From assembly GCA_045577985.1 (NCBI GenBank), contig JAZNJJ010000003.1:87192-151191 (forward strand): 64,000 nt of DNA, in the 5' to 3' direction. A program made the position numbers and the translations under genes. The stretch comes from Alphaproteobacteria bacterium (GTDB taxonomy: Bacteria > Pseudomonadota > Alphaproteobacteria > RF32 > CAG-239). Of this stretch, positions 4,152-24,607 are shown piece after piece (the first letter of the stretch is position 1; the number at the start of each line of letters is the position of its first letter). Below the pieces are notes generated by a model. It was not told the DNA's origin. It worked only from the letters and a program-made list of their open reading frames with translations, and did not search any database.

Positions 4152-4160
4152 TTAATCCTC

Positions 4161-5948: not shown

Positions 5949-5956
5949 TTTCTAAC

Positions 5957-7507
5957 TTATTTCACAAACATTCCATTTCCAAAAGAAACTTGTTTAGATG
6001 AAGCTCTTTTTTTGCTAGAACTAGAGCTAGATGTTGAAGATTTGCTCGAACTACTAGAACTAGATTCTCTTTGGGTTCTCTGTCTATTTGATGTACTAGA
6101 GCTAGAACTTGAAGAACTTACATTTGCACCTCTAACATTTTTAACATCAGATTTAATGCTCTTCTTTTCTGTAGATTCAGGTGTTTTATCAGCTCCGTTG
6201 AATGTAACAACAGGCTCATATTCCATAACTGTTCCACCTGTATACAAATAACTCTTCACACCTTTATTATTAAATGCAATATAGTTATCTGTAATAGCTG
6301 TAACAACTTCGCCACCTTTTAACATTGAACCTTTATGAACAATAAAAGTTGTTCCATCTTTACTAACAATTTTCGCAATAATATCTCTACCTTGACCGGT
6401 AATATCCATGATAGCATATTCTTGAGACATATCAATAGCATTTTCGTCTAGGCCACTTAATGCCATATCTGCGAAAGGATTAGCCGAATTGCCAGCTTTA
6501 ATCTTCTTAACCTCATCTTCAGAATCAACCAAAGACTGTCTTAATTGACTAACCTGAGCTTTATATGATGTAATAATTCTCTCATGAGCTGATTTAGCTG
6601 CTTCAGCTTTCTTATTAACAGAAGTAGCTTCTCTTTTTATTGTTGCAATTTTATTTTCGAAATCAGCAATTAATTTTATACGTTCATCTTGCAATTCATT
6701 GATTTTTTGTTGCAATTCAACATTTTTAGCAACCCAATCTTGATTAACTCTAAGCATTTCGTTCATATATTCATTAAGAACTTTTGCTTGGCGAACTTTT
6801 TCTAATTCAATCTCTTTTGCCTTAATTTTTTGCTCTTCAGCCATAAGCATTGCTTGTCGTTCAGCCTCTTCATCTTTAATACGTTGCTCAGCTAAACGTT
6901 TCTTTTCTGCTATTTCTTCTTGAGCTTGGATTCTAGCTGCTTTCAGAGCCTCCACTTTATTTTTCAATTCTTCGCGTTTTAATTCTAAATTCAATAATGT
7001 TGTTTGTTTTTCAATATTAGACATTTGATTAAACAAATCACTATCAACCTTAGATAAGATTGCATTACCAAATCTTTCAAACGGAGATTTTGGAGCCTCA
7101 ACTTCAGGAATAACCTCTGTTGTGCTAGGAGCAGGAGCTTCAGAAGCAGGAGTTTCAGAAGTAGGAGCTACTTCAGGTTGAGTTGTTTCTGTAGTAGGAG
7201 CTACTTCTTCTGTAGTATTTACATCAACAGTTTCTTCAGCAAAAGGATCATCTTCTACAACAGGTGGTTCGCTAGAACTTTCAGTACCTTCTGCTAATAT
7301 ATCTGCAACCTCATCTGTATTTTGAGTTTCTTCTGTTCCCAAAATATCTCCAGTAGCTGGAATTACCTCATCGACGGGAGCTTGTTGAGCTTCTATCTCT
7401 GCTTCTGTTCCCAAATTAGGAACTGCATCTTCCGCAAAACAAGAATTGTGCATAGCTATCATTATTGCAAACGCCAAAACAATCATAACTATATTTTTAT
7501 TTTTCAT
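5957..7507 (-). CDS. Expanded PilP/GspC-HR-like pilus protein (signal peptide, acidic P/T/E region, long coiled coil, beta domain, poly-Ser tail)
   Basis: The start at 7507 (MKNKNIVMIVLAFAIMIAMHNSCFA) follows the upstream stop as TAATATG. The C-terminal MDITGQGRDIIAKIVSKDGTTFIVHKGSMLKGGEVVTAITDNYIAF matches the PilP/GspC HR-domain pattern. Its position equals pilP in R64 order. Confidence 0.5.
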   Translation of the reverse strand: MKNKNIVMIVLAFAIMIAMHNSCFAEDAVPNLGTEAEIEAQQAPVDEVIPATGDILGTEETQNTDEVADILAEGTESSSEPPVVEDDPFAEETVDVNTTEEVAPTTETTQPEVAPTSETPASEAPAPSTTEVIPEVEAPKSPFERFGNAILSKVDSDLFNQMSNIEKQTTLLNLELKREELKNKVEALKAARIQAQEEIAEKKRLAEQRIKDEEAERQAMLMAEEQKIKAKEIELEKVRQAKVLNEYMNEMLRVNQDWVAKNVELQQKINELQDERIKLIADFENKIATIKREATSVNKKAEAAKSAHERIITSYKAQVSQLRQSLVDSEDEVKKIKAGNSANPFADMALSGLDENAIDMSQEYAIMDITGQGRDIIAKIVSKDGTTFIVHKGSMLKGGEVVTAITDNYIAFNNKGVKSYLYTGGTVMEYEPVVTFNGADKTPESTEKKSIKSDVKNVRGANVSSSSSSSSTSNRQRTQRESSSSSSSKSSTSSSSSSKKRASSKQVSFGNGMFVK

Positions 7508-7508
7508 A

Positions 7509-8756
7509 TTATAACTCATAAATTTCTCCCTTATAGCTCCAATTTCCAGAATTAATATCATATGTTATAGTATTAACAGTTAACCCTGAAAATTTCATTA
7601 ATAATTCAATCCACATTAAAGGATCACTATTAGACGTAAAAGAATACCCCATAACTTTGTATCTATTACCTCTTGGTGATTGCCACGTAGTTGGTGACAT
7701 TTTTATATCTATACCAAGACCTTGATTTAAGTCATTGATAATATCAATCAATTCTTCTTCTTTATACTCTGGAGGTGAGTTTAATGTACTTATTTCACCA
7801 ATAGGTACGGTCACCATAAAAGTATTACCATCTTTTGCAATAACTCTGGATGAAAACTCAACTCCTGAAACATCAAGAGCTTGCTCCATCCACATCATTC
7901 GACCTAATTCTCTTTTCCAAGATGTTACTAAACCTGTTGCTGGCTCACAAGTAACACCTTCTAATTTCCATCCTGGAGTTACAATCTGAACAACCTTTTT
8001 TGTTGCTTCAAAGCAATTTTTCATAACATCAATAGGATTCTCCAGTTTTTCCCATGGTTTAGGTTCAGGAGGAATAAATACCGGAGCCTCAACCTGCTCG
8101 ACTGGTGCAATTACCGGCGCATCAGGAGCGGTAAAAAACATACTCTGTAAGCTTGAATAACCAAACCAACCAATGATGGCAAAACCAATAACAATGATAA
8201 CAAGCATAATACCATCATTATTAGCACTTATCTTATCCAGCTTAACAGTTAAACCTTTTTTTAATAGTTTTCCTATTTCATCACTCTTAGTGTCTTCAAT
8301 ACCCCACTCAGGAGGAGCAAAGATCATATCCCAATCTGGCACTGCCAACATTGAAATAAATTGATCTTTTGCATCTTTTTCATCAACATAAAGAGTATCA
8401 CCATCTGATAATATCACATCGTTTCTAAAACAGATATACCACCATCCGGTATCAACTTTGAATACACCAAGAAAGGAAGTTACGTTTCCCAATCCTGAAA
8501 CAAGAGACACTGCAGCAGAAGGAATGCCACGAGTAAATCCTTGAGCTGAAGAAGCCAAACCAAATTGTGATGATTTACCTTTTCTTACAGCATATAAATC
8601 TGCACCTTCAAGAATATTTTCAGCAGCTTCTTTAACTTCATTTAGTGGATTATCTTCATCCAAGAGTGGTTGCCAAAACAGACTCGCTGCATATGTCACC
8701 CCATCCTCAGTAAAGGACGATTTCCACGCTTTTTCTTCAGTTTGATCTTCAGCCAC
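7509..8756 (-). CDS. Bitopic inner-membrane pilus assembly protein (R64 PilO / BfpC / GspL class by topology and position)
   Basis: 415 aa with a single central TM (IMLVIIVIGFAIIGWFGYSSL) separating cytoplasmic and periplasmic halves of about 190 aa each. It sits between the secretin and the PilP-like gene. The assignment rests on synteny and topology only. Confidence 0.4.
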   Translation of the reverse strand: MAEDQTEEKAWKSSFTEDGVTYAASLFWQPLLDEDNPLNEVKEAAENILEGADLYAVRKGKSSQFGLASSAQGFTRGIPSAAVSLVSGLGNVTSFLGVFKVDTGWWYICFRNDVILSDGDTLYVDEKDAKDQFISMLAVPDWDMIFAPPEWGIEDTKSDEIGKLLKKGLTVKLDKISANNDGIMLVIIVIGFAIIGWFGYSSLQSMFFTAPDAPVIAPVEQVEAPVFIPPEPKPWEKLENPIDVMKNCFEATKKVVQIVTPGWKLEGVTCEPATGLVTSWKRELGRMMWMEQALDVSGVEFSSRVIAKDGNTFMVTVPIGEISTLNSPPEYKEEELIDIINDLNQGLGIDIKMSPTTWQSPRGNRYKVMGYSFTSNSDPLMWIELLMKFSGLTVNTITYDINSGNWSYKGEIYEL

Positions 8757-8771
8757 GAGTGCCTCCTATGT

Positions 8772-10379
8772 TTAATTCATTCTTGATTCAGGAGATAATG
8801 GAGATTCCAATACAACAGGAGTCAACATAATAACCAAAATCGTTCTATCCTTTTGAGCTGTAGAAGATCCTCCTAACAAGTTATTTTCAGGAGTTCCTAC
8901 GCCTTTTTTATCGGCAGTATTTTCAACACGTTCATAACCTGCTAAAATAAGTGTTTCGCCAGATTTCATAGCAACTTCTTGGGTAAATCCACGTGTTTCG
9001 ATAACTGGATTTTGAATATATTCGCTATCCCCTTCAGTAGCTTCTCCTTCTTCATTAGTACTGGTTGATGTAACATTAACAGAATCTAATGATAACAAAT
9101 CAGACAATGTTAAGTTGAAAAACATCAGGATTCTTCCATGATCCAAAATTCTTGGTAAAACACTCATAGTGAAACCTGTTTCAATTTCTTCGGTTTCAAC
9201 AGATATATCGTAAGAATCACTATCACCACTATTTGTTTTAGTAATTTCAGATATATAGTTTTGAGTTTTAACAACTTGGATTGGAGCCGGTTTGTTATTC
9301 ATTGTAGTAACAGTACCACTTGTAATCAAATTCGTCTGACCTTCTTCAGAGAGAGCTTGCATTGCTGCATCAACACTCCAACGGCTAGAACTAATACCCA
9401 TTGTTAAACTACTAATAGAGTTTTCTAATGCGCTAGTAGTTGAAGCACTAATATCTTTTATCGAACCACGTCCACCAAAAGTAGCTCTTAAGTCTAAACT
9501 ATACTGATCAGCATTAGAAATATTAACTTGAATAACTTTAACACTAATAGCAACTTGCTTAGATACACGCATATTTTGTTCATTAATATACTTTGCCACT
9601 CTCTTAATATCTGTTGGTGTAGCTGTTAACGTGATTGTTCCATTACCTTTATCCATAACCAAATTTGAATCTTGAGTAATCATAGATGAAATTGAGCTTT
9701 GAATATTTCCCCACATATCCATTCCATCAACAGAACTACTTTGGGATATACTAGCAGCACCGCCAGATCCTCCTACTGATACACTTAGAGAAGGGTTGGT
9801 TGGTAAAGAATACAATACAAATGTCTTTGTAATATACTTATAGAAATAAATTTCATTTTTTTCATATTTCCACCAAATACCAAAGCGATTAGCTACTTCA
9901 TCTAGTAATCCGCTGATAGGACCTTTATAATTTAAAATCATACGAGTAGAATCAGTCCATTGAGCACCAATATCCTTCATCGATGGTTGGTTGTGATCTG
10001 CGTTAGAAATTGCATCTTCTTCCAGTTCAGGAGCATAACGAACTGAGATAGATGTAATTTTATTAATCATACTACCTATTTCGTAAAGAGTGATTGGTCT
10101 ATTACTAATCAATGTAATACCATCAGATGTTTCTAAATAAGCAGGAACAGGCTGTCCCTCAAATTCAATACTACTTGTATCACCAAGCCAAATATCATCC
10201 TTAACTCTAATAACATCATCAGCTATAGGATCACCTGGAATAGCAGCCTTTTGTTTTAAATCCAACGCATTTTCCGCTTGTCTTGCCATTTGCTGGTCTA
10301 ATTCAGGAGAAACAGAACATGCAACGGTAATGCCAAGGATTCCGGCAATAGCAAGTTTAAATAAATTAGTCATACGCAT
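8772..10379 (-). CDS. Secretin lipoprotein (R64 PilN-like)
   Basis: The start at 10379 is preceded by GGAGGACGAAA. Lipobox ILGITVAC. The C-terminal secretin domain has VLPRILDHGRILMFFNLTLSDL, GETLILAGYERVENTADKKGVG and TILVIMLTPVVL. Confidence 0.85.
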   Translation of the reverse strand: MRMTNLFKLAIAGILGITVACSVSPELDQQMARQAENALDLKQKAAIPGDPIADDVIRVKDDIWLGDTSSIEFEGQPVPAYLETSDGITLISNRPITLYEIGSMINKITSISVRYAPELEEDAISNADHNQPSMKDIGAQWTDSTRMILNYKGPISGLLDEVANRFGIWWKYEKNEIYFYKYITKTFVLYSLPTNPSLSVSVGGSGGAASISQSSSVDGMDMWGNIQSSISSMITQDSNLVMDKGNGTITLTATPTDIKRVAKYINEQNMRVSKQVAISVKVIQVNISNADQYSLDLRATFGGRGSIKDISASTTSALENSISSLTMGISSSRWSVDAAMQALSEEGQTNLITSGTVTTMNNKPAPIQVVKTQNYISEITKTNSGDSDSYDISVETEEIETGFTMSVLPRILDHGRILMFFNLTLSDLLSLDSVNVTSTSTNEEGEATEGDSEYIQNPVIETRGFTQEVAMKSGETLILAGYERVENTADKKGVGTPENNLLGGSSTAQKDRTILVIMLTPVVLESPLSPESRMN

Positions 10380-11148
10380 TTTCGTCCTCCATAGTTTCAA
10401 TTACTAATACACGGTTTCCTTTATAAAATGTTGCAACAGGAGCAGGTCTAGCTCTAGCGAATGCTCTAACTAATGCAGAAGCAACATCTGCAAAATTACC
10501 TCTAAACATAGCTCCAGCATTTAATGTATAATTACGATTTGTTTTCCAAATCAATCTCCAACCAGATTCTTCGCTCCAGTTTGTCAAGAGTTCTTTTAAG
10601 CTTTGACCTTCTTCCGCTAACCAATCTTTAGTTGTATCTTCTTCTTCAGAAGTAGATTTATTTTCAGTTTGTGCATTTTCAGTATTATTATCTACAGATG
10701 TTGAATTTGTGTAACCTTGTTCATTAGTTGCTTGAATGTAAGCAGCATTAAACTGATTATTAGGATTACCCTCTCTTTCCATTATTGCAACTTCATAGTC
10801 AACAACTTCATCATCTATGCTAGGAGGAATTGCTGCAGACATATTATTTCCAGCTCTAGCCTGAGTAATACGATGATCTCTTGGTGTGCGTTCTCCATAT
10901 TTACGAAAATCAGCAGCTGTCTTTGTGTAGTTCACATATTCAGGAGCATCTTCGCAAACACTGAATCCCTCAGGAGTTTCAACACAAACCTCATTATATT
11001 CCTGATTACTAGTACAGATGCCATCTTCACATTCTTCTTTTAGATAGCTTTCGTTACTAATACATCCAGAAAGTCCCAGAACACTGAATAATAAACCTAC
11101 AATTGTAAGTTTGTTAAACAAAATATTTTTCTTTAAATTACATCTCAT
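10366..11148 (-). CDS. PilL/TcpQ-domain lipoprotein
   Basis: Lipobox VLGLSGC. The C-terminus LLTNWSEESGWRLIWKTNRNYTLNAGAMFRGNFADVASALVRAF...KGNRVLVI fits the TcpQ/PilL domain pattern. It lies directly upstream of the secretin, as in R64/PAPI-type clusters. Confidence 0.6.
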   Translation of the reverse strand: MRCNLKKNILFNKLTIVGLLFSVLGLSGCISNESYLKEECEDGICTSNQEYNEVCVETPEGFSVCEDAPEYVNYTKTAADFRKYGERTPRDHRITQARAGNNMSAAIPPSIDDEVVDYEVAIMEREGNPNNQFNAAYIQATNEQGYTNSTSVDNNTENAQTENKSTSEEEDTTKDWLAEEGQSLKELLTNWSEESGWRLIWKTNRNYTLNAGAMFRGNFADVASALVRAFARARPAPVATFYKGNRVLVIETMEDENAYD

Positions 11149-11196
11149 CGTATTTTCCTATAATACTTGTTGAAAATTAATTTGCACAAACAAGAA

Positions 11197-12687
11197 TCAA
11201 TACCAAGGGTTATCTCCTTTTTTAACCGCTTTAGCCAATTCTTCTTCTGTTGCATACCGCACATTTCTAATAATAAAAGAGTTTGGTTCTCTATCTGTAA
11301 AAATTATATTAATTTTATTATAATCTACACTATTATTTATTAAGATTGTGTATAACAGGTTCAAACGCTTTTGTTGTAAGGCTTTGTTTGAATCTCCGTT
11401 TATACGAATTTCAATAATAACATTTTCATTTTTTGTTACATTTTCTGAAAAAGCGTGCAACCATTCTAATGTTTGACCTGATATTTCTGCTCTATTTGGC
11501 TGAAATGACAATTTTAACTCGGTAGGAGCTATATTGTTTTTTGCATTATCCAGTCCAAATAATTTTCTAAATGTAGAACTTTGAGAACTCTTCTTTTCTG
11601 TTTCGTCAGAACTATCATTTTCTTCAATCACATTATCTTCAGATGTTTTCTTGGTTCCCCCTGAAAGCCATGATACAATTCCCTCAGTTAGAGAAGAACT
11701 CTTCTTTTCTGTTTTTTCATTTTTTAATGGTTCTATAGGAGTTGTATTTGATACGGCATTTGTTTTATCTTCATTATCTTTATCTTCAGATAATGCCAAG
11801 TCTTCAAGAACTTTCTTTTCAAGCTTTTTATTTTCTTCAGATGTTGCCAACTTAGGAGTTAAGTTCTCTTCATTCAGAATATCTTCAGGGATAGGCAGTA
11901 AAATATTATCATTTTTTATTTTATATACAACTTGCGTTTCATTTTCTGATTTAGCTACATCATTTTGAGTTCTATCTAATGCCGAAATATTATCTCTATT
12001 AGCTTCATTAAATTGTTCAATAGTATTTCTTGTTATATGTTTATTTGCAACTTCTGCAACTTCCCATGGACTATCTTCTACTAAAGGTAATGGTTGCTCT
12101 AATTCAATAGAAGTTAAAGCTTTTTCGTTTTCGGACCCTAAGTTATCAATAACAACATTTGCCGACGCTAAGGCAATTTGGCTACTTTCCGCTTCGCTAG
12201 AAACAGAAACACTAGAAGCAGTTTTTTCAAAATTATATACTAAAGGTATTTCAAAAACAGGTGCAGATGATACATCAGCAATAACGAGTTCATTGTTAAC
12301 ATCTTCATTACCTTTATTGATAATACCTATTTCTTCTTTTTTTTCTTCCATAAGAATATTGGTATTGTCGGCTAAAACAATTGGAGCATCCTGAGTTGCG
12401 TTCTCGTCTTCTGGTTCATATAAAACAACTTCAGAATTTTGAATGTCAATAGGGACATCTTTTATTATTTCATTTGAAGCAAACTTTTCTTCTTTTACCT
12501 CATAAGAAGTTAAATCATCTTCATTTTGAGCAAATAATTCTATATTTTTGGTCTCTAACTCGGATACAACAAAATCTGCTTGTTTATCATTATGTGATAA
12601 AGTATTATAAAACTTAGTGGCCGCAAACACTGCAGCTAAAGAAAATATAAAGCTTCCTAAAAAGCATTTCAAACCAAATTTTGGCAT
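11197..12687 (-). CDS. Membrane-anchored acidic protein, first gene of the pilus operon; possible degenerate OmpA_C-like C-terminus
   Basis: N-terminal anchor FLGSFIFSLAAVFAATKF, then about 350 aa of E/D/N/S-rich low complexity. The C-terminal LSFQPNRAEISGQTLEWLHAFSEN...VIIEIRINGDSNKALQQKRLNLLYTILINNSVDYNKINI loosely follows the OmpA C-terminal domain pattern. Confidence 0.3.
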   Translation of the reverse strand: MPKFGLKCFLGSFIFSLAAVFAATKFYNTLSHNDKQADFVVSELETKNIELFAQNEDDLTSYEVKEEKFASNEIIKDVPIDIQNSEVVLYEPEDENATQDAPIVLADNTNILMEEKKEEIGIINKGNEDVNNELVIADVSSAPVFEIPLVYNFEKTASSVSVSSEAESSQIALASANVVIDNLGSENEKALTSIELEQPLPLVEDSPWEVAEVANKHITRNTIEQFNEANRDNISALDRTQNDVAKSENETQVVYKIKNDNILLPIPEDILNEENLTPKLATSEENKKLEKKVLEDLALSEDKDNEDKTNAVSNTTPIEPLKNEKTEKKSSSLTEGIVSWLSGGTKKTSEDNVIEENDSSDETEKKSSQSSTFRKLFGLDNAKNNIAPTELKLSFQPNRAEISGQTLEWLHAFSENVTKNENVIIEIRINGDSNKALQQKRLNLLYTILINNSVDYNKINIIFTDREPNSFIIRNVRYATEEELAKAVKKGDNPWY

Positions 12688-13041
12688 CTCTAAACCTTAT
12701 AAATGCAGGAGTATGTACGCAAAACCGGAGCGCAATACACCCGTCTTCGGATTGAGGATACAACTAATTGTGTTAAAATAGAGTTAATGAAGAATCACTG
12801 AATTAAACAAAATTTTCGACATCTGTTTTCGAGCATTTAAAATAATTAAAATGTTATCAAATTATTTACTTTTTATTGTTAAAATCAGCTAGTGTAAGGC
12901 ACTTTATAAATGTGAATTTTTTGTTACAAGACTTTTTATCTCGTAAAAACAGCATGTTGTTCGAATATTAAAAATCTGGAAGTTTTACAGAAAATGAGTT
13001 AATATAAAAGTGTGATAGAATTCTACTTAAGGAGAAGAAAA
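12688..13041. promoter_or_regulatory. Divergent control region between the pilus operon and the T4SS array
   Basis: This is the only sizeable non-coding gap between the two arrays. One candidate sigma70-like promoter is TTGTTA (12921..12926), a 17-nt spacer, then TAAAAA (12944..12949). TTTTCGA-type repeats lie at 12813..12840. Most of the region is duplicated upstream of the second virB2. Confidence 0.4.
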
Positions 13042-13410
13042 ATGAAATTTATAAAAAATAACATACTCAGCATCACTACTATGGTATTCTTATTTACCAT
13101 AGTTATGATGGGTGATTCTTATGCAGCTACAGTGTTTGGTGCTGCTCGTAATAAGTTGGTTGAGCTGTTTAAAAATGCCAAGATGATTGTATTTGTTATT
13201 GGTGGTTTTGGTTTAATTGCTTTGGCATTCCAAGCTATCTTTGGTAAAGTAAAATGGCCTTGGTTTGCAGCATTAGCATTCGGTTTGGCTGTAGTTGCTG
13301 CTGCAGGTGCTATCGTTAACTACGCCGCAAATACAAGTGGTGCTGCTTCTTTCAATGATAGCATAGGAACTTCTGATTACGATGGTACAGGTGCATTGGG
13401 CACAATGTAA
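13042..13410 (+). CDS. virB2: VirB2/TrbC-type T4SS pilin, copy 1
   Basis: The ATG at 13042 follows AAGGAGAAG; the track start at 13012 is an upstream GTG. It has a signal peptide ending DSYA/A and two hydrophobic helices separated by GKVKWPW (FVIGGFGLIALAFQAIFGKVKWPWFAALAFGLAVVAAAGAIV). Size is 122 aa. It lies upstream of virB3 and virB4. Confidence 0.75.
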   Translation: MKFIKNNILSITTMVFLFTIVMMGDSYAATVFGAARNKLVELFKNAKMIVFVIGGFGLIALAFQAIFGKVKWPWFAALAFGLAVVAAAGAIVNYAANTSGAASFNDSIGTSDYDGTGALGTM

Positions 13411-13435
13411 GTGAGTTTGCACTTTCTTTGTTTTA

Positions 13436-13462
13436 TTCGGAGAGGGATAGCCCCTCTCCGAA
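13436..13462 (+). other. Perfect 11-bp stem-loop downstream of virB2 copy 1
   Basis: TTCGGAGAGGG-ATAGC-CCCTCTCCGAA. No U-tract follows it, so it is not a canonical intrinsic terminator. A homologous hairpin follows copy 2. Confidence 0.5.
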
Positions 13463-13861
13463 AAGGTAGTTGCATTATATCTTCTTACCAATATAAAGAA
13501 ATTAGAATTTTAAATACTAATAAGATTTTCTTTCATTATTTTACTTGAAGCGAGTTTTTTTCTTTTTGTTAAAATAGAGTTAATGAAGAATAACAGAATT
13601 AAACAAAATTTTCGACATCTCTTTTCGAACATTTAACGATATCTGTTTTCGAACATTTAAAATAATTAAAATGTTATCAAATTATTTACCTTTTGTTGTT
13701 AAAATCAGCTAGTGTAAGGCACTTTATAAATATGAATTTTTTGTTACAAGACCTTTTATCTCGTAAAAACAGTATGTTGTTCGAATATTAAAAAGCTGGA
13801 AGTTTTGCAAAAAATGAGTTAATATAAAAGTGTGATAGAGTTCTACTTAAGGAGAAGAAAA

Positions 13862-14236
13862 ATGAAATTTATAAAAAATAACATACTCAGCATCACCACT
13901 ATGGTATTCTTATTTACCATAGTTATGATGGGTGATTCTTATGCAGCTACAGTGTTTGGTGCTGCTCGTGATAAGTTGGTTGAGCTGTTTAAAAATGCCA
14001 AGATGATTGTATTCGTTATTGGTGGTTTTGGTTTAATTGCCTTAGCATTCCAAGCTATCTTTGGTAAAGTAAAATGGCCTTGGTTTGCAGCATTAGCATT
14101 CGGTTTAGCTGTTGTTGCAGCAGCAGGTGCTATCGTTAACTACGCCGCAAATACAGATGGTGCTGCTTCTTTCAATGATAGCATTGGAGATCAAGCACAT
14201 GCCGGTTCAGGTGAATTGGATACTACAAATTGGTAG
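13862..14236 (+). CDS. virB2: VirB2/TrbC-type T4SS pilin, copy 2 (divergent C-terminal tail)
   Basis: It has the same RBS and start context as copy 1. The protein is identical by eye except for ARNKL>ARDKL and the last 25 residues or so. Confidence 0.75.
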   Translation: MKFIKNNILSITTMVFLFTIVMMGDSYAATVFGAARDKLVELFKNAKMIVFVIGGFGLIALAFQAIFGKVKWPWFAALAFGLAVVAAAGAIVNYAANTDGAASFNDSIGDQAHAGSGELDTTNW

Positions 14237-14251
14237 TAACACTTTGTTTTA

Positions 14252-14278
14252 TTCGGGGAGGGATTATTCCTCTCCGAA
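14252..14278 (+). other. Conserved stem-loop downstream of virB2 copy 2
   Basis: TTCGGGGAGG...CCTCTCCGAA. The A>G change relative to copy 1 gives a G-U pair, so the structure is retained. It lies about 25 nt upstream of the next pilin start. Confidence 0.4.
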
Positions 14279-14304
14279 GAGACAATTATCTTATGGAGGT
14301 TATT

Positions 14305-14628
14305 ATGTTGTGCATTAAAATAGGGAAATTTATTTATAATAACAAATATACATTATGTTTGTTTCTTTCTTTATTTTTATTCACAACAGATGCTTTTGCC
14401 GCATTTGAAGCTTTGGATACTGCCGGAAAAACTATATTCAAAGGTTTAAGAAAAGTTATATACCCTGCTGCCACTATTGGTATTGCTTGTATTTGTATTG
14501 CCGGAATGTTTGGAAATTTCAACTGGAAATGGCTTGCAGCTATTCTGATTGGTGTATTTGTTATTGCAGTTGCGACACAGGTTGCTGGTTTGACCGGGGC
14601 AGAAGTTAGTCTGGATGGCGGAGATTAG
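14305..14628 (+). CDS. VirB2-like pilin paralogue 3
   Basis: The ATG at 14305 lies 5 nt after GGAGG. Signal peptide ...TTDAFA/A, then two hydrophobic segments around GNFNWKW (ATIGIACICIAGMFGNFNWKWLAAILIGVFVIAVATQVAG). The architecture matches copies 1 and 2. Confidence 0.6.
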   Translation: MLCIKIGKFIYNNKYTLCLFLSLFLFTTDAFAAFEALDTAGKTIFKGLRKVIYPAATIGIACICIAGMFGNFNWKWLAAILIGVFVIAVATQVAGLTGAEVSLDGGD

Positions 14629-14637
14629 GAGGGTATT

Positions 14638-15009
14638 ATGAAAAATAAAGTATTTTATCTACTTTTATTGTTTGTCGGTATAATCCTCACTCCAAATAAT
14701 GCTTATGCTGATATTTGGGATAGTTTGTCAGGTAAAGCGGATGAAATAGGTAAAGGCCTGTCTAATGTTGGATATATTATAGCTGGATTTGGTCTTATTG
14801 CATTTTCTGTTGCCGCCATTTTTAATAAAATATCCTGGAAAACGCTTGCTTATATCATGATAAGTTGTTTTATTTTAGGTATTACAACAATGGTTGTGGG
14901 AGAGATTACTGGAGAATCAGAATTTATCGGTTATCTTGATTATTCTTCGTCAGCAAGTGCAAATGTTGAAACTCCTGGTGATGCTCAGAGTGTTTCCGTA
15001 AAAAAGTAA
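14638..15009 (+). CDS. VirB2-like pilin paralogue 4
   Basis: RBS AGGAGG. Signal peptide ...NNAYA/D. The core GYIIAGFGLIAFSVAAIFNKISWKTLAYIMISCFILGITTMVVG has the same two-helix layout. Confidence 0.6.
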   Translation: MKNKVFYLLLLFVGIILTPNNAYADIWDSLSGKADEIGKGLSNVGYIIAGFGLIAFSVAAIFNKISWKTLAYIMISCFILGITTMVVGEITGESEFIGYLDYSSSASANVETPGDAQSVSVKK

Positions 15010-15021
15010 GGAAGCAAATAA

Positions 15022-15462
15022 ATGAAGTATTTTCTTTATGCCATCATATCAACTTTCTTTTATTGTTCAACGGCAAATGCCTATATTGATGATCGGCAAA
15101 CAGGGGAAGCTGAAGCTACAGCCGGAGAACAAAATTCTAATTTGTACCGTTTAAATGCTTCAAGTACAATGTCTATAAAAAAGCTGAAGAAATTAGACGA
15201 GTTATATGCGAAAGAGCAGATTTCAGGAAAAAGATTGACTGAAACTGATATCGAAAAGCTTTTAGATTTAGATGATAATAAAACACAAAAAGAGCTTGAT
15301 TTGGCTCTGAAAGATGCGATAAAAAAGACTAAGAATACAAGAGATTTGGTTATTTCTATTGATATAGGTGTTTATAATCAGTTCAAAAATTTTCACCAAA
15401 TATCTATAAAAGATAGAGAGATAGCTAAAAATCTTACAAATAATTTAGGGAGGCGCAAATGA
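15022..15462 (+). CDS. Small secreted helical protein, unknown family
   Basis: 146 aa with signal peptide ...CSTANA/Y and a K/E/D-rich helical body. Its stop overlaps the virB3 start (ATGA). No recognisable motif. Confidence 0.5.
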   Translation: MKYFLYAIISTFFYCSTANAYIDDRQTGEAEATAGEQNSNLYRLNASSTMSIKKLKKLDELYAKEQISGKRLTETDIEKLLDLDDNKTQKELDLALKDAIKKTKNTRDLVISIDIGVYNQFKNFHQISIKDREIAKNLTNNLGRRK

Positions 15463-15749
15463 GAGAGGATATATTAAAAGCAGTTGCTCAACCACCTAAA
15501 TTTTTGCTTGCACCAATGGTTCCTGGAATTATTAATTTAGGCATACAGTTTCCAATGTTGTTTATGGGGATTGGTATTGCAGATATGAATCCTTTGTTTT
15601 TTGGAACAACCATAATAATGGCACATTTGGGATTAGTTGTTGCCGGTGTTAAAGAACCTCATTTATCTACGATGATGCAAGCTTATGGTCAAACAAATAA
15701 AATAAGTAGCAATCTTTATGCAGTAAGAGGAAATAAATTTGAGCCATGA
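15459..15749 (+). CDS. virB3: VirB3/TrbD-like protein
   Basis: 96 aa with two TM segments (LLAPMVPGIINLGIQFPMLFMGIGI; FFGTTIIMAHLGLVVAGV). RBS GGGAGG. It is translationally coupled (ATGA) to virB4. Confidence 0.7.
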   Translation: MREDILKAVAQPPKFLLAPMVPGIINLGIQFPMLFMGIGIADMNPLFFGTTIIMAHLGLVVAGVKEPHLSTMMQAYGQTNKISSNLYAVRGNKFEP

Positions 15750-18175
15750 ACCAGTATGATATTTTTAGTATTTTTGTTGAAGGGCTTAGTAACGTAGAAG
15801 TTGCTGTGGCTCTTATTGGTATAGCTTCAGCAGCCTCTTTTGCTGTGTTATTATCAACTAAATTTGGAAACTGGATTCTTCCTCAACCTCGAGAGTCTCG
15901 TGTGTCTGACTTTTTGCCTTTTACTAAATTGATGTCAGATGGTGTAACTATTCAATGTAGCAATAATTCGTATGCTCGTGTATTTCGCTTAGACGGTGTA
16001 GATTTGTCTTCTGCAACAGCTGAAGCTATATATTCAATGATGGAAGCTCGCAAATCTTGGATTGATGATATGGCAAACATGCAAATTGTATGTCGTGTCA
16101 TAACAACAAGAAATCGCACATCATTAGAAAGTGAAAAAAGAGATTTTGGTAATCAGCTGTTAGAAACAGTATCCGAAATATGGTATCAAAACATGAATAG
16201 GGTATATAGTAATAAACACTATATTATTCTTTCTGTGATAGATCGCAAAGATGCATTAAAAGATTTGAATTATGCATCACAAAGCTTGATTTCAACACTT
16301 GGAGAATATGGCGTGAGCCCTATGTATGAAACAAGTGATAGTAAAGCAGTTGATGGACCTTTTTATCTATTTTCGCAATTATGTAGTCCGGTATCCAAGC
16401 CAGAACCTAAGGTTCGCAATACAGAAGGTGCTCGTTTATGTGAGATGCTCACCGCAGATCATATCCATTTTACAAAAGAAGAGGGTATTATAAAATTCTT
16501 TTCCGGAGAAAAAGAAGTATATGAAATTGCAATGGGTATAAGAGTTAGTGGTGACGCAATGGATGAAAGTATGATTTATTCATTGAACGCTATTGATTGT
16601 GAGCTAGTTATTTTGCATAATATTCGTCCAATGTTTAGAGCTGAAGCTAGAATGCTCTTGGTTCAACAACAACGAATGGCGGCAGTAACAAGTTTTTCTG
16701 GAGGTGTTGCTGAACAATATGATGAGGCCTTGGCTTCAATAGATGATAGTGATAGCAATTACCAATCATTGTGTGAGTACTCCATGACTATTATCCTTAA
16801 AGGAGAAAGTATGGAAGAAATAAACTTTGGAGAGTCTGAAGTTCAACGTATTTGTCGTGCATTTGGTGTAACACCTGTTCGAGAAGGTTGGGTAAACCAA
16901 GCTGTATTCTTTACACAATTTCCTACATATGATACATATCCACGAACATATCGTTATCTCTCCCGAGTGATTGCAATGGCAATTACATTAGATAAGCCTG
17001 CAGAGGGATTTGGTAAGAGTGACTGGGGACAAGGAGCAATTTCTATATTCCGTACAATGTCCGGATCAGCATATAGATTTCAATTCCATGTATCTAGTGA
17101 AGAGTCAGCCGTTGCCCACTGTTGTATTATTGGACCTACAGGTCAAGGTAAAACAACGTTACTTACTTTCCTTGCTGGTCAGGCAATGAGACATGGTGAT
17201 TTGAAGGTGTTTTTCTTTGATAGACACTTAGGTGCTCAAATCTTTACACGAGCAGTAAAAGGTGCATATATAGGCTTTGACGGTGATGAAAAGAATGTTG
17301 CCTTAAATCCGTTTGACTGTGCAAATACTCCTGAAAATAGAGCATTTTTAAGACGATGGTTAAAAGCTATCACAATGGTTGATGATGCATTGGCAGATAG
17401 AGAGGTTTCTCGTGCTGTAACGACTGCTTTTGATTATTTACGTCCTGAAGAGAGATTATTGAAGAATTTATATAAAAGCTGTTTTTCTCCAACAGGAAAT
17501 ATGCGAAGAGAATTATATCGTTGGGTGAATCCTGAACAATATGGTGCAATTTTTAACGGTCAAGATGATAGTTTAGACTTGAAAAGCCGTCGTTTCATGG
17601 CATTTGATTTTACACATATTTTTGAAGATGAAAATTTGGCACCTGCCGTAATTAGTTATATTATGCACAGAATTCAGGCAGAAACAGGTGAAACAGGTGT
17701 TCCGTCTTTAATTATGATAGATGAAACGGCACCAATGTTAAAACACCCTATGTTTAGAGATTACTTTATCATCGGTTTGCAAGAGGGACGTAAAAAACGT
17801 CAGGCATATCTCTGTGCATTCCAACAGCCGAATATTGTAGATAAATTAGGGGTTGGTGAAGTTATTCGTGGTCAGTGTCAAACTGTTATTTTCTTCCGCA
17901 ACCCTCAAGCACAAGTTGAAGATTACGCAAACTGGAACTTAACACAAAATGAATTAGATTTCATTTTTGGTAAAAGTTATCGAGATTTTCCTTATGCAAT
18001 ATTATTATCACGTCCTGTTACGGGAGAGTCTGTAATTTTGGATGTTAACTTAGGTGGTTTAGGTAAATATTTGCGAGTTTATAACTCCGGACGTAAAAAT
18101 GTTTTATTAGTTCAACAACTAATAAAAGAATACGGTGAAGATGGATTTGTTACAAAATATTTAAATATTGCCTAG
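15746..18175 (+). CDS. virB4: VirB4-family T4SS ATPase
   Basis: 809 aa. Walker A IIGPTGQGKTT, Walker B PSLIMIDETAPML. It has the typical VirB4 size and lies just after virB3. Confidence 0.9.
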   Translation: MNQYDIFSIFVEGLSNVEVAVALIGIASAASFAVLLSTKFGNWILPQPRESRVSDFLPFTKLMSDGVTIQCSNNSYARVFRLDGVDLSSATAEAIYSMMEARKSWIDDMANMQIVCRVITTRNRTSLESEKRDFGNQLLETVSEIWYQNMNRVYSNKHYIILSVIDRKDALKDLNYASQSLISTLGEYGVSPMYETSDSKAVDGPFYLFSQLCSPVSKPEPKVRNTEGARLCEMLTADHIHFTKEEGIIKFFSGEKEVYEIAMGIRVSGDAMDESMIYSLNAIDCELVILHNIRPMFRAEARMLLVQQQRMAAVTSFSGGVAEQYDEALASIDDSDSNYQSLCEYSMTIILKGESMEEINFGESEVQRICRAFGVTPVREGWVNQAVFFTQFPTYDTYPRTYRYLSRVIAMAITLDKPAEGFGKSDWGQGAISIFRTMSGSAYRFQFHVSSEESAVAHCCIIGPTGQGKTTLLTFLAGQAMRHGDLKVFFFDRHLGAQIFTRAVKGAYIGFDGDEKNVALNPFDCANTPENRAFLRRWLKAITMVDDALADREVSRAVTTAFDYLRPEERLLKNLYKSCFSPTGNMRRELYRWVNPEQYGAIFNGQDDSLDLKSRRFMAFDFTHIFEDENLAPAVISYIMHRIQAETGETGVPSLIMIDETAPMLKHPMFRDYFIIGLQEGRKKRQAYLCAFQQPNIVDKLGVGEVIRGQCQTVIFFRNPQAQVEDYANWNLTQNELDFIFGKSYRDFPYAILLSRPVTGESVILDVNLGGLGKYLRVYNSGRKNVLLVQQLIKEYGEDGFVTKYLNIA

Positions 18176-18250
18176 GTTTTGGAAAAAAGATTTATTTTTA
18201 ATGAAAAATATGATACGATATTTTTAATTAAGTATTATAGGGAGGTTATC

Positions 18251-19255
18251 ATGATTATAGACATAAGAAAAATATTGTTCTTGGCTGTTGCAAGCCTAAT
18301 GATAACAACTCTTCCAATAAAGGAATGTGCATCATTTCCTCTGCCATCCGCGGATATAAAAAGAATGGTGGAAAATGCTAAAAAAACGTATAATCAGATA
18401 CTTGAGATTAAACAAGAAGTAGAAAGTAATATGCGTATCGTCCAAGAAATTCAAAATGGAGGATATGCAGCAGCAGCTGGTGATTTATTTGCAAAAATTC
18501 AAAATGGAGACTATGACCGATTCGGAGCTAACGTAAAGGGGGCTGTTCAAGGATTAAAACAAGGTGCAAAAGATGCTCAATATGCCGCAGCAGACAAAGA
18601 AAAAAGAGAAAAAATGGCTCAAGAAGAGGCTAATAAACTAGCACAGAAAAAGAAAGCTGAAGACCAAAAAGCTGAAGGCGAAGGTAAAGAGAAAACCGAA
18701 GAAAATATCGAAAAAGAGAAAGAGAATAAATTCAAAAAAGCTTATACTTGGTTAAAAGAGAGCAAGCTAGGTAAAGGTACAAAGTCTACATATAATTTCA
18801 TTAAAAATAATAGAACGCTGACATCTAGTGGATTGGCCGCTATAGAAGATGCACAGGAAGGAAACTGGGGAGATGCCGTGCTTAGAGCAGGGTATGGTGC
18901 AAGTAATATATATGGCATGGATGAAAATACTAGCGATTGGATTAGTAGTATTTCAACGATTGGTGGAACAGGTTATAATATAGGAACAAGTGGGGGGGAC
19001 GCACTTGATATGCTGAATGATGCCGTGAATAATAGTGCATTATGGGATAGTGCAGGATTCGTTAACGACGAATATTATGATTTTAGAGTAGAACAAGAAG
19101 AACAAGAAAAATTTGATGCTTGGCAAGAAGAACAACGTAAAAAACAAGCGGAAGAGTTTAATAAATGGAGTGAAGAACAAAAAAACAATACTCCAAGTTT
19201 TGGGGATGCACCATCCACTGACGATCTTACAGACAGTATGACATTTGATTTCTAA
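18251..19255 (+). CDS. Secreted coiled-coil protein (possible VirB5/TrbJ-like), triple G-[DN]-[YW] motif
   Basis: The ATG at 18251 follows AGGGAGG. It has a signal peptide, an N-terminal Q/N/E-rich helix (ADIKRMVENAKKTYNQILEIKQEVESN), and a K/E coiled coil. Motifs NGGYAAAAGDLFA, NGDYDRFGANVKGA and EGNWGDAVLRAGYGA are present. There is no internal TM. Confidence 0.4.
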   Translation: MIIDIRKILFLAVASLMITTLPIKECASFPLPSADIKRMVENAKKTYNQILEIKQEVESNMRIVQEIQNGGYAAAAGDLFAKIQNGDYDRFGANVKGAVQGLKQGAKDAQYAAADKEKREKMAQEEANKLAQKKKAEDQKAEGEGKEKTEENIEKEKENKFKKAYTWLKESKLGKGTKSTYNFIKNNRTLTSSGLAAIEDAQEGNWGDAVLRAGYGASNIYGMDENTSDWISSISTIGGTGYNIGTSGGDALDMLNDAVNNSALWDSAGFVNDEYYDFRVEQEEQEKFDAWQEEQRKKQAEEFNKWSEEQKNNTPSFGDAPSTDDLTDSMTFDF

Positions 19256-19279
19256 AGATAATAACCAAGGAGTAATAAT

Positions 19280-20959
19280 ATGACTAATACTTGTAAAAGA
19301 ATAATCAAGATGTTTGCTTTAGCAATTATTGCTATCTGTGGTTCATTATATTCTGTGCCATCAGAGGCTGCAGGTGAAGACGTTAATTATGACGGTTTGT
19401 ATAATGATCGACAAATTGTTCCAAACACAATGGCCATAATATGTAAAACAGATGCCGATGATATGGTTGCAGATGTTACAAGAGCATACAATTGTGTGAA
19501 TAAAATTGTAACCAAACTGAATAATTCAGATGCCTCTGTAAAGAAAGAAGGTAAGGATGATTTAGCCAGAATAAAATATGAAGAATTGAACAACATTTTA
19601 GGTATGGCTATTACCAAAAGTGCAACAATTTCTAATTATGAAGAAGTGCAAAACTCTATGATGGAAGCTAGCGCTCAAACTCAAACAGAACATGACGATA
19701 ATGCATCAATTGCAAATACAACAGCTGTTTTAACTGATGTTATTAATAGTATGCGAGATTTATATGCAGAAAAATTAAAATATCAAGCATTAGCAGGTAT
19801 TACAAGCATAGACCCGGGAGTTATTCAAGATTTTGAAACAGAGGGTAGTGAAGGTGATAATGGTGAAGATAATAATAGCGGAAATAGTGGAGAGGGAGAT
19901 ACTACACCAGGAGCCAGTGTTGAAGGTAGCTCAACAACTACTACCGCTACAAAAGAAGTTCCATTCCAAGGATATTTAAAGTGGGTTAGTGATAACCAAT
20001 GTGTAGAATTAGTTTGTACTGGAACAGATGAGTTAAGTAAAACGTGCCAAGAAAATTATCAAATTTGTCCTGATGGACGTTATTTAGACCCACATAACCC
20101 TAACATTGTTATTGCATGTGAAAGCGGATCTTGTACAGAGATTGATTTAAATCAAATATCGTCTACATCAAACCAAAATATTGAATATTCAAGTGGAAAT
20201 TATTGTAAATCAGGAAATTCTTTAATCAAATGTCCGGATGGTTTTTATAAACAAGGTTTAAATTGTTACGAATGTATGGGAGGATATTGTGCTCTATCTA
20301 TCTGTCCGGAAGGATTAAGAGAAGCTGAACAAAAAGCAAAAAATGATATGGAAGGAAAAGGTTATTTAGGTTCAAATGTGAGTACAGATAAGGTACTAGG
20401 AGCCGTTGATTATACAACAAGGTTGGTTGGCGGAGAAAATGCTGACACCGTAAATAGCATATTTAGCGGAATAATTAATAACACTGATCGCAAATTTTCT
20501 AATCCGAATAGCAGTTCTTTAGGTAGAACACCTACTTATTCAGGTAAAACAAAAGAAGAAAGAGATGCTGCAAATAAACGTAGTTCCGGTGATGCTAATT
20601 CAAGAAATAGTTCTAGCTCCAGAGACTCAAGAACAAGCGAAGCAATAAATGATACCAATAGTAGTAATAATTCTTCTCAACCAGATACAAAAACATTGAA
20701 TACAAATTTGAGAACGAATAGTGGAAATACAGTATTTACAATGGAAAATGATGGGAGCCAAAACGTATTTTTACCGGTTTCAGAAACATTGAATTTTGAC
20801 AAAGGTAATACGTCGGATAAAGATAATACGTCGGATAAAGGTAATACGTCTGATGCTACACCATCTACGAAAAACTCTGGTACAGATACAAAGCCAAAAT
20901 TAGATATTAGCGTTCCTAAGCCAACTTTGGTAGATTCAAAAGACGCATGGGCAATGTAG
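19280..20959 (+). CDS. Secreted Cys-rich protein with S/N-rich tail
   Basis: RBS AAGGAG and signal peptide ...VPSEAA/G. A cluster of about 16 Cys runs from CVELVCTG through CQENYQICPDG, ACESGSC, YCKSG, KCPDG, NCYECMGGYCALSICPEG. The tail is S/N/T/D-rich with a DKGNTS x3 repeat. Confidence 0.55.
   Translation: MTNTCKRIIKMFALAIIAICGSLYSVPSEAAGEDVNYDGLYNDRQIVPNTMAIICKTDADDMVADVTRAYNCVNKIVTKLNNSDASVKKEGKDDLARIKYEELNNILGMAITKSATISNYEEVQNSMMEASAQTQTEHDDNASIANTTAVLTDVINSMRDLYAEKLKYQALAGITSIDPGVIQDFETEGSEGDNGEDNNSGNSGEGDTTPGASVEGSSTTTTATKEVPFQGYLKWVSDNQCVELVCTGTDELSKTCQENYQICPDGRYLDPHNPNIVIACESGSCTEIDLNQISSTSNQNIEYSSGNYCKSGNSLIKCPDGFYKQGLNCYECMGGYCALSICPEGLREAEQKAKNDMEGKGYLGSNVSTDKVLGAVDYTTRLVGGENADTVNSIFSGIINNTDRKFSNPNSSSLGRTPTYSGKTKEERDAANKRSSGDANSRNSSSSRDSRTSEAINDTNSSNNSSQPDTKTLNTNLRTNSGNTVFTMENDGSQNVFLPVSETLNFDKGNTSDKDNTSDKGNTSDATPSTKNSGTDTKPKLDISVPKPTLVDSKDAWAM
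20798..20851 (+). repeat. 3 x 18-bp in-frame tandem repeat (DKGNTS/DKDNTS/DKGNTS)
   Basis: GACAAAGGTAATACGTCG / GATAAAGATAATACGTCG / GATAAAGGTAATACGTCT, read directly from the sequence. Confidence 0.9.
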
Positions 20960-20996
20960 GTACGTTTTATTATAATTATAAAGAGGGAGACTGAAT

Positions 20997-22310: not shown

Positions 22311-22311
22311 A

Positions 22312-23526: not shown

Positions 23527-23538
23527 GGAGAGACAGAC

Positions 23539-24585: not shown

Positions 24586-24607
24586 AGAACAAGTTGGGAG
24601 TAATAAA

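Follow-up and report, generated by a model that had tools for sequence, protein, structure and literature searches.

Organization of the pilin genes

The locus described here lies in a stretch of 64,000 nucleotides (nt) from contig JAZNJJ010000003.1 of an uncultured Alphaproteobacteria bacterium (RF32 lineage, CAG-239). "The window" means this stretch at its full length, and the coordinates below are window positions. The region of interest carries four genes of the VirB2/TrbC pilin family, named A1, A2, B, and C, which are followed by genes of a type IV secretion system (T4SS). A1 and A2 lie in two direct repeat units, delimited by a repeat finder and a MAFFT alignment. Both units are composed alike, of a leader of ~270 nt, a ribosome-binding site (RBS), a pilin open reading frame (ORF), and a GC-rich hairpin. 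The start-to-start offset of the units is 796 nt and rises to 820 nt past a 24-nt insertion in unit 2. The features of the region are as follows:

12768..13465, plus strand: duplicated unit 1, with leader, RBS, pilin A1, and hairpin (repeat finder, alignment, breakpoint test)
13042..13410, plus strand: pilin A1, 122 amino acids (aa), VirB2/TrbC family, hypervariable tail encoded at 13369–13410 (ORF list, Pfam)
13466..13563, plus strand: inter-unit spacer, 98 nt, without a counterpart 3' of unit 2
13564..14281, plus strand: duplicated unit 2, with leader carrying the 24-nt insertion, RBS, pilin A2, and hairpin (repeat finder, alignment)
13862..14236, plus strand: pilin A2, 124 aa, tail encoded at 14189–14236 (ORF list, Pfam)
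14305..14628, plus strand: pilin paralogue B, 107 aa, syntenically kept (Pfam, synteny)
14638..15009, plus strand: pilin paralogue C, 123 aa, syntenically kept (Pfam, synteny)

All four ORFs matched the Pfam family TrbC/VirB2 (PF04956) above its gathering cut-off of 27.9 bits (A1, 31.4; A2, 31.4; B, 42.6; and C, 35.2 bits), which bears out the family assignment made in a first-pass annotation of this DNA. The paralogues share 31% (A-B), 26% (A-C), and 34% (B-C) identity. The inter-unit spacer occurs once within the window and may derive, by decay, from the 5' end of B. A local alignment of the two scored 15 against a shuffle mean of 12.3, a score reached by 149 of 1000 shuffles and thus not significant, and a 16-nt match of the spacer to 14362–14377 had an E value of 0.27. 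Neither silent pilin cassettes nor extra pilin fragments were found in the window with blastn-short and tblastn, and a tRNA scan of the window was negative.

The duplication is genuine and strain-variable

A1 and A2 are present on the same NCBI contig of 170,284 bp. The junction that runs from tail 1 through hairpin 1 and the spacer into leader 2 was found in four independent assemblies (X1, X4, L094, and L095). A Logan contig of run X1 spans 13257–13670 across this junction, two Logan contigs of run X4 (sheep gut) cover 13402–13578 and 13560–13781, and the ENA contigs L094 and L095, from other samples, are continuous from hairpin 1 to gene B by way of the spacer, unit 2, and tail 2. Because the junction recurs in independent assemblies, an artefactual joining of two alleles is very unlikely, and the tandem duplication that the first-pass annotation had proposed is real.

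Other contigs apparently carry a single copy. In L002–L006 and L093, the left unique flank leads to one A gene with tail 2 and then directly to B. In run X3, which is without tail-1 or spacer material, a 1,761-nt contig (k = 31) omits exactly 820 nt. Contigs of 16–34 kb with a depth of 14 from runs X9/X10 also have one A gene. The copy number of A is therefore most likely polymorphic among conspecific strains. Two contigs end inside the region, L001 at the A1 stop codon and L092 just past hairpin 1. JGI metagenome contigs, scanned for exact occurrences of the coding sequence of tail 1, gave no matches, and runs X16–X19 yielded nothing at ≥93%.

A1 and A2 form a mosaic of near-identical and divergent segments

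The A1 and A2 proteins are 91% identical and differ by N37D, by S99D, and in their last 13 and 15 residues, respectively, where 11 of the 15 distal tail positions are changed. The first-pass annotation had quoted both tail strings correctly and had noted the N/D change, but it put the divergent tail at about 25 residues. At the nucleotide level, the leaders are identical at 261/274 positions (4.7% differences) and codons 1–109 at 315/327 (3.7%), whereas the 12 alignable tail codons match at only 20/36 positions (44% differences) and the 3' flank, including the hairpin, at 41/53 (23%). Between the upstream and downstream non-coding parts, the difference in identity is significant (Fisher p = 1e-4). 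In a maximum chi-square analysis, the breakpoint fell after 13364: differences amounted to 4.0% on its left and 36.4% on its right, and none of 2000 permutations reached the observed value. Divergence had previously been described as confined to the tail. Its concentration at the C terminus holds, both across the family and in independent duplications, but it also takes in the 3' non-coding flank.

Nei-Gojobori estimates for the core gave a synonymous divergence (dS) of 0.13 and a nonsynonymous divergence (dN) of 0.004–0.012, which indicates strong purifying selection. For the tail, the corresponding proportions were pN 0.41 and pS 0.56, an unreliable estimate drawn from 12 codons, most of which carry 2–3 changes; it was not used as evidence of positive selection. 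Since the core dS between the copies (0.13–0.19) exceeds the strain background of 0.02–0.06, which is the dS of conspecific flanks, the copies are not recent relative to strain divergence, and the description of the duplication as recent becomes doubtful.

The zone of high divergence reaches the 3' non-coding flank and the tail codons are multiply changed, which favors a mosaic produced by recombination or gene conversion over point mutation. A fresh duplicate with a tail driven by positive selection would fit this pattern poorly, and a mosaic would fit it better. Either gene conversion may have homogenised the 5' 600 nt of an older duplicate, or recombination may have brought in the tail and 3' flank of another allele. 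Among the database proteins of this species, all four combinations of S or D at position 99 with tail 1 or tail 2 occur (P0121, P0123, P0124, and P0125), as expected from exchange between copies. It is possible that an individual combination is a chimeric assembly instead.

Pilin alleles vary sharply on near-identical flanks

The conspecific contigs L087/L088 and L089–L091 have flanking genes that are ~99% identical to those of the window. In these flanks (the 496-aa gene, orf146, and virB4), dS is 0.02–0.06. On the same contigs, the A core has a DNA identity of 85–87% with a dS of 0.36 and a dN of ~0, and the A tail is only 55–64% identical. Other tails occur on the same flanks in X7/X8, X11/X12, and X9/X10/X14/X15, so that the species has at least five or six tail variants on near-identical flanks. 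The pilin genes are a hotspot of recombination and diversity with sharp borders. A1 and A2 may represent two related alleles that came to stand in tandem, or else a duplication of greater age, since lost from some strains.

Further observations were made on L089 and L091. At 5434–6141 of these contigs, compared with window 14305–15009, the island of divergence includes B and C (87–89% nucleotide identity; C dS 0.46; flanks 99%), and the amino acid changes of B are concentrated in its C-terminal tail. In L089, the 496-aa upstream gene (3148–4646) is called as two ORFs of 217 and 273 aa, which could reflect a frameshift or a misassembly, as an 8-nt alignment gap near window position 11800 suggests.

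An A-B-C triad is conserved across related gut and rumen species

With VirB4 as the anchor, 80 related loci were retrieved from species-representative genomes (VirB4 identity 76–91%). All are from gut, rumen, or faecal Alphaproteobacteria metagenome-assembled genomes (MAGs), including "Candidatus Scatocola" (Rhodospirillales in the NCBI taxonomy). The A-B-C triad lies upstream of virB3/virB4 in 34 species-level loci, and A-B was found in 31 more distant ones, where C is probably beyond BLAST detection. The comparison shows three paralogues, A-B-C, to be ancestral in at least 34 related MAG species from gut and rumen. The earlier picture of four paralogues in a row stands as to the four family members, but the row itself is a conserved triad to which a strain-level duplication of A has been added.

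A has been duplicated independently elsewhere (L029, L039/L040, L044, L073, and L082). In the L044 pair, the cores are ~94% identical and the tails unrelated. In the L082 pair, the signal peptide is ~97% and the core ~88% identical, and the mature N-terminus and the tail are divergent with indels. The differences within both pairs thus lie mainly in the mature N-terminus and the tail. The L073 pair is young and includes leader and hairpin.

The extra A-like copies at L039 1340–2002, L040 3078–3818, and L029 1848–2333 are old and encode 161–246 aa in total, with a long Ser/Gly/Asn-rich extension between signal peptide and core that is unusual for the VirB2 family. Four genome records that carry the locus with a VirB4 identity of 78–91% (L008, L010, L020, and L058) are labelled [Ruminococcus] gnavus, Eubacteriales, Bacteroidaceae, and Lachnospiraceae; these labels are probably wrong, or the bins contaminated.

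Variation is confined largely to the predicted exposed ends of pilin A

An AlphaFold2 model of A1, built from a 22-sequence alignment (mean predicted local distance difference test score, pLDDT, 66), has a signal helix at residues 2–27 and two long helices at 31–67 and 72–100, joined by the loop G68-K-V-K71. The tail (101–122) has a pLDDT below 50 and is predicted to be disordered. A basic inter-helix loop motif, G-K-V-K in A, is common to A, B, and C. The predicted architecture of a long signal peptide, two hydrophobic helices, and a short basic loop is that of the PF04956 type.

Among 21 A orthologues, differing alignment columns amounted to 0.12 in the core, 0.30 in the signal peptide, 0.49 in the mature N-terminus, 0.57 in the proximal tail, and 0.89 in the distal tail. 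The hypervariable C-terminal end, whose length ranges from 0 to ~17 residues across homologues, comes after a conserved F-x-D-[ST]-[LIF]-G motif (F-x-D-S-[IL]-G in A1/A2). In solved T4SS pili, the termini are on the outer surface and the inter-helix loop points towards the lumen. By analogy with these structures, both variable regions of A would face outward.

Each unit carries a conserved leader and a trailing hairpin

The leader was aligned over ~330 nt upstream of A in 33 loci. The elements identified in the two units are as follows:

12772..12788: CtrA-like box TTAAAAT-NNN-GTTAAT, on the minus strand TTAA-N7-TTAAC, reading TTAACTCTATTTTAAC at 12772–12787; first bases of unit 1
12854..12885, plus strand: promoter-like block of unit 1, TTATCA, 17 nt, TGTTAAAAT (extended -10; TGnTAnAAn) (cross-species leader alignment)
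13436..13462, plus strand: GC-rich hairpin after A1, best 45-nt window ~-21 kcal/mol, no U-run
13568..13584: the same CtrA-like box, minus strand TTAACTCTATTTTAAC at 13568–13583; first bases of unit 2
13621..13644, plus strand: 24-nt insertion of unit 2, adding a third TTTTCGAAC motif (alignment)
13674..13705, plus strand: promoter-like block of unit 2, same pattern (alignment)
14252..14278, plus strand: GC-rich hairpin after A2, best 45-nt window ~-23 kcal/mol

The CtrA-like box precedes pilin A by a few hundred nt in the aligned leaders. The motif TTAAAATNNNGTTAAT occurs exactly once per locus, on the plus strand, in 54 of 95 loci, and upstream of A where positions were checked. TTAA-N7-TTAAC, which we take to be the consensus of CtrA binding sites from the Caulobacter literature, is found upstream of the gene at both units and marks a putative site as judged by its sequence. 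Since TTAA-N7-TTAAY is not enriched in the window as a whole (6 found, 9.4 expected), the argument for the box rests on its positional conservation. The box of unit 1 lies in a divergent intergenic region shared with a type IVb pilus operon and could control either or both.

The pattern TTATCA-17 nt-TGnTAnAAn resembles, at the consensus level, a -35 element plus an extended -10 element. More conserved blocks lie in the 170 nt that separate the promoter-like block from the RBS. All conserved leader blocks are retained in both units, which are ~95% identical there. The leader alignment and the comparison of hairpins confirm that each unit has its own complete conserved upstream region and trailing hairpin, as had been reported from the sequence at first sight. 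The 24-nt insertion of unit 2 sits 3' of the CtrA-like box and 5' of the -35 element, where the leader lacks conservation between species, and L094 and L095 have an insertion of about half that length at the same position. A short element, TTTTCGA(A/G)C, is repeated two or three times with strain-specific spacing (window 12812–12840 and 13608–13660; L094 160–200); in its behavior, it resembles a small variable-number repeat, placed between the box and the promoter-like block.

Each of the 27 sequences compared (25 related loci and both window copies) has a hairpin after A, whose best 45-nt window lies between -17 and -28 kcal/mol. The structure is kept, the stem sequences are unrelated, and there is usually no U-run. 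The stem-loop probably acts as an attenuator or an mRNA stabiliser and would govern how much A is made relative to the downstream genes. Intrinsic (Rho-independent) terminators were considered for these hairpins and rejected, as AAAAGG and GAGACA follow instead of a U-run and a terminator scan was negative. A consensus scan for sigma-70 promoters and terminators showed no enrichment and did not call the hairpins, and an Rfam scan of 12600–15100 at E ≤ 1 returned no family.

The pilin genes adjoin a T4SS locus

Downstream of C, a gene for a 146-aa secreted protein is followed by a VirB3-like gene and virB4:

15459..15749, plus strand: VirB3-like protein, 96 aa, two hydrophobic segments, overlapping the virB4 start (size, position, and hydropathy; no Pfam match)
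15746..18175, plus strand: VirB4 ATPase (Pfam)

The T4SS genes downstream of the pilins encode VirB4, two VirB8 proteins, VirB9, VirB10 (TrbI domain), and VirB11, and beyond VirB11 there are housekeeping genes (an engB-like GTPase gene, yidC, rnpA, and later gyrB and nrdD). Pfam scans took in most of the larger ORFs of the window; among the ORFs scanned, no coupling protein (VirD4), relaxase, VirB5, VirB6, or TraF-like peptidase was recognised. A tblastn search with pilin A found no homologue in 72,556 plasmids (PLSDB) at E ≤ 1e-3, and neither the pilins nor the neighboring ORFs received usable names from NCBIfam.

Six consecutive ORFs after virB4 (18179–27880; 358, 559, 437, 425, 348, and 1090 aa) have N-terminal signal-like segments. 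They matched no Pfam or NCBIfam family, are not mutually paralogous, and have at most one N-terminal hydrophobic segment, so they are not polytopic. The two VirB8 paralogues are in tandem (27896–28651 and 28999–29739). The VirB9 homologue (29757–31376) has a C-terminal SPOR (peptidoglycan-binding) domain. The 1,390-aa VirB10 homologue (35819–39991) has its TrbI domain at residues 1099–1298, and its N-terminal ~1,000 aa consist of beta-flower repeats. Before it lies a 1,476-aa protein with beta-flower and RHS repeats (31383–35813), which is 25% identical to the VirB10 homologue over ~1,000 residues. On the other side of the pilin genes, a type IVb (TCP/Tad-like) pilus cluster (3030–12687, minus strand) is oriented divergently from the T4SS pilins. 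It encodes a T2SS-F platform protein, a T2SS-E ATPase, a PilO-like protein, a secretin, a TcpQ-like protein, and the 496-aa protein, which is acidic and without a family. The pairing of this cluster with the T4SS is kept in L087–L091.

Proposed explanation and alternatives

The explanation that we favor, if by a modest degree, is that the four genes are the pilin module of a chromosomal VirB/Trb-type T4SS whose exposed pilus surface has been diversified, the diversity being maintained by recombination. The ancestral module, as the comparison of loci shows, comprises a leader with the TTAA-N7-TTAAC box, A, a GC-rich stem-loop, B, C, virB3, virB4, and the following genes. In the present strain, the entire A expression unit (~700 bp, from box to stem-loop) is doubled. 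The products have matching signal peptides and helical-hairpin cores, the part that would build the pilus wall, and differ in their last 13–15, predicted disordered, residues. For the working of such a module, we infer co-expression and co-assembly of A1 and A2, surface exposure of the tails, a selecting agent, and roles for the box and the hairpin. Both genes would be transcribed from near-identical promoters. Because the cores of A1 and A2 are identical, the products would co-polymerise, giving one pilus with two tails on its outer surface. The homogeneous 5' part and the divergent tail and 3' flank would stem from recombination or gene conversion between copies or alleles. Selection through recognisers of the pilus surface would keep the diversity, with pilus-binding phages, host antibody, or target-cell receptors as candidates. 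The stem-loop would attenuate read-through or stabilise the A message, leaving A in excess of B, C, and the machinery.

Several observations weigh against this explanation. The pN/pS of the tail gives no sign of dN > dS, although the 12 alignable codons are too short a basis. Some of the short-read single-copy contigs could be chimeric collapses of two copies, and the 24-nt insertion might change A2 expression. A Foldseek search of the PDB gave nothing significant, with the Agrobacterium T-pilus VirB2 structures 8fai_A and 8exh_A at ranks 3 and 5 (E = 5.6 and 6.9), and PDB sequence searches with A1 and a 29-sequence profile returned chance matches only and no pilin. Membership in the VirB2 family therefore rests on Pfam and gene context. 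The homologue P0113 stops right after the D-S-L motif, which makes the distal tail dispensable. Removal of the tail during maturation is possible as well, and it underlies the main rival, which we consider unlikely: that the distal tail is a leaving peptide drifting neutrally, and that the duplication serves dosage or is neutral. In RP4 TrbC, the C-terminus is removed before cyclisation. The conserved motif ahead of the hypervariable stretch, the variable length of that stretch (0 to ~17 residues, missing from P0113), its predicted disorder, and a tail pN/pS below 1 (from 12 codons, hence unreliable) would all suit such a peptide. Nevertheless, no TraF-like signal-peptidase homologue came up in the Pfam scans, which took in most of the larger ORFs of the window, and the mature N-terminus is hypervariable too (0.49). 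Neutral drift of a cleaved tail also leaves unexplained the island of old alleles that covers A, and in some strains B and C, within 99%-identical flanks, and divergent-tail duplicates have arisen repeatedly.

A recent tandem duplication followed by strong positive selection on the tail amino acids only would account for a leader and core that are 95–96% identical beside a tail changed at 11 of its 15 distal positions, and for the same terminus bias in duplications of other lineages. We hold it to be decidedly unlikely, as the divergent zone runs into the 3' non-coding flank (41/53 versus 261/274 upstream), most tail codons have 2–3 changes against a background of 4–5%, the core dS between the copies is above that between strains, and recombinant combinations of residue 99 and tail exist. 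It is quite improbable that A1 and A2 are alternative pilins, differently regulated to make two condition-dependent pilus types. The insertion in unit 2, whose length varies with the strain, adds a third TTTTCGAAC motif in the interval from box to -35, each unit has its own full leader and hairpin, and Anaplasma virB2 paralogues that are expressed differently in tick and mammalian cells offer a precedent (PMC3556328). In both units, nevertheless, all conserved leader blocks are intact (~95% identity), the insertion affects a part of the leader without between-species conservation, and identical cores would co-assemble if both pilins were made. An assembly artefact, in which two strain alleles of a single-copy gene were joined in tandem, has very little to commend it. 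Several short-read contigs do lead from the left flank to B by way of one A gene with tail 2 and without a second copy, and two contigs end at the A1 stop codon or just after hairpin 1. The junction is nevertheless present in four assemblies from different samples and assemblers, both pilins are on one long contig, and the spacer has no other occurrence in the window.

A more far-reaching account, which we put forward tentatively and regard as rather doubtful, treats A as a serotype locus at the level of the population. Recombination would exchange old alleles, invariant in the core and hypervariable at the termini, and the alleles would occasionally be stacked in tandem, within a vertically inherited, clade-wide T4SS with three ancient VirB2 paralogues. 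Frequency-dependent selection by pilus-specific phages or host immunoglobulin A would act on the alleles, and control would be exerted by the CtrA-like box and the post-pilin attenuator. If this were true, T4SS pilin tails would be a previously unrecognised determinant of strain type and phage reception in gut commensals.

Tandem, strain-variable VirB2 genes with hypervariable termini have so far come from intracellular pathogens (Bartonella and Anaplasmataceae), where they were interpreted as a means of host adaptation or of antigenic variation. Here, this architecture, having arisen repeatedly on a conserved three-pilin module, is found in abundant uncultured gut and rumen Alphaproteobacteria. 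This suggests that selection on an exposed filament generally leads to surface diversification of the T4SS pilus, which would then be no peculiarity of pathogens. An identical core with different tails amounts to a natural experiment on the recognition of T4SS pili in the gut by phages, antibodies, and partner cells. The locus could be used to mark strains in gut metagenomes, and it is a documented spot at which short-read assemblies of this lineage end or may collapse copies.

Comparison with known systems

Pilin A resembles RP4 TrbC and Agrobacterium VirB2 in its Pfam family, its long signal peptide, and its two hydrophobic helices. The TrbC prepilin has a C-terminal extension beyond helix 2, as does pilin A. 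Unlike in the RP4 system, no TraF-like peptidase was seen in the locus, and there is no significant sequence or fold link to solved pilins. Allele groups of type IV pilins and the central domains of flagellins combine a conserved assembly core with hypervariable exposed parts. The pilins of this locus are like them in having a core under strong purifying selection (dN ~0), hypervariable parts that are taken to be exposed, and an island of divergence in near-identical genomes. They differ in belonging to another family and another machine, in varying in a short terminal tail and not in a domain, and in that a search of the window turned up no silent cassettes that could serve programmed variation.

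Several virB2 genes in a row beside virB4, in strain-variable number, are also known from Anaplasmataceae (A. phagocytophilum, A. marginale, and Ehrlichia). In Anaplasma, the arrays have 8–15 copies depending on the strain and are hypervariable near the N- and C-termini; the signal peptide and two hydrophobic helices are kept, and the diversity lies near the mature N-terminus and the C-terminus (PMC3556328). Here too, the mature N-terminus and the C-terminus vary and the core is kept, so that the analogy with Anaplasmataceae drawn in the first-pass annotation is apt in both hypervariable termini and copy number. The present locus differs in that three old paralogues are syntenic and the copy number varies in A only. 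In contrast to the rvh system of Rickettsiales, with its split loci and expanded polytopic VirB6, the genes are gathered in one locus, and the ORFs checked included no polytopic VirB6-like protein. Where rvh has duplicated scaffold genes, the window holds two VirB8 genes (27896 and 28999), four VirB2 genes, one VirB4 gene, and one VirB9 gene.

In Bartonella, trwL and trwJ occur as tandem copies that are variable in number, highly diversified, and recombining, and variant pili have been proposed (PMC2883598; Nystedt et al. 2008, cited in PMC3610622). As in Bartonella Trw, tandem major-pilin genes of lineage-variable copy number lie in a chromosomal T4SS of an alphaproteobacterium, and the pilin copies diversify far beyond the machinery genes, for which recombination or concerted evolution has been invoked in Trw. 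A further likeness is that no coupling protein was found adjoining the system, Bartonella Trw being without TrwB. Trw has an R388/IncW-like origin, whereas pilin A is without a detectable homologue among the plasmids searched. Trw also has trwJ co-amplified with trwI and trwH, whereas neither a VirB5 family match nor amplified VirB5-like genes were seen here. Bartonella is a blood-borne pathogen, and the host in the present case is a gut commensal-type MAG. Finally, the locus differs from Trw in combining two A copies with two ancient paralogues, B and C, and in that each A unit has its own promoter region and hairpin.

A full-text literature search found no paper that combines RF32, Alphaproteobacteria, and type IV secretion. 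The locus works like the Bartonella and Anaplasma systems and is a member of neither. What is new is the combination of an uncultured gut and rumen host, a conserved A-B-C triad, an allelic island within one species, and the duplication of a whole unit from promoter to hairpin.

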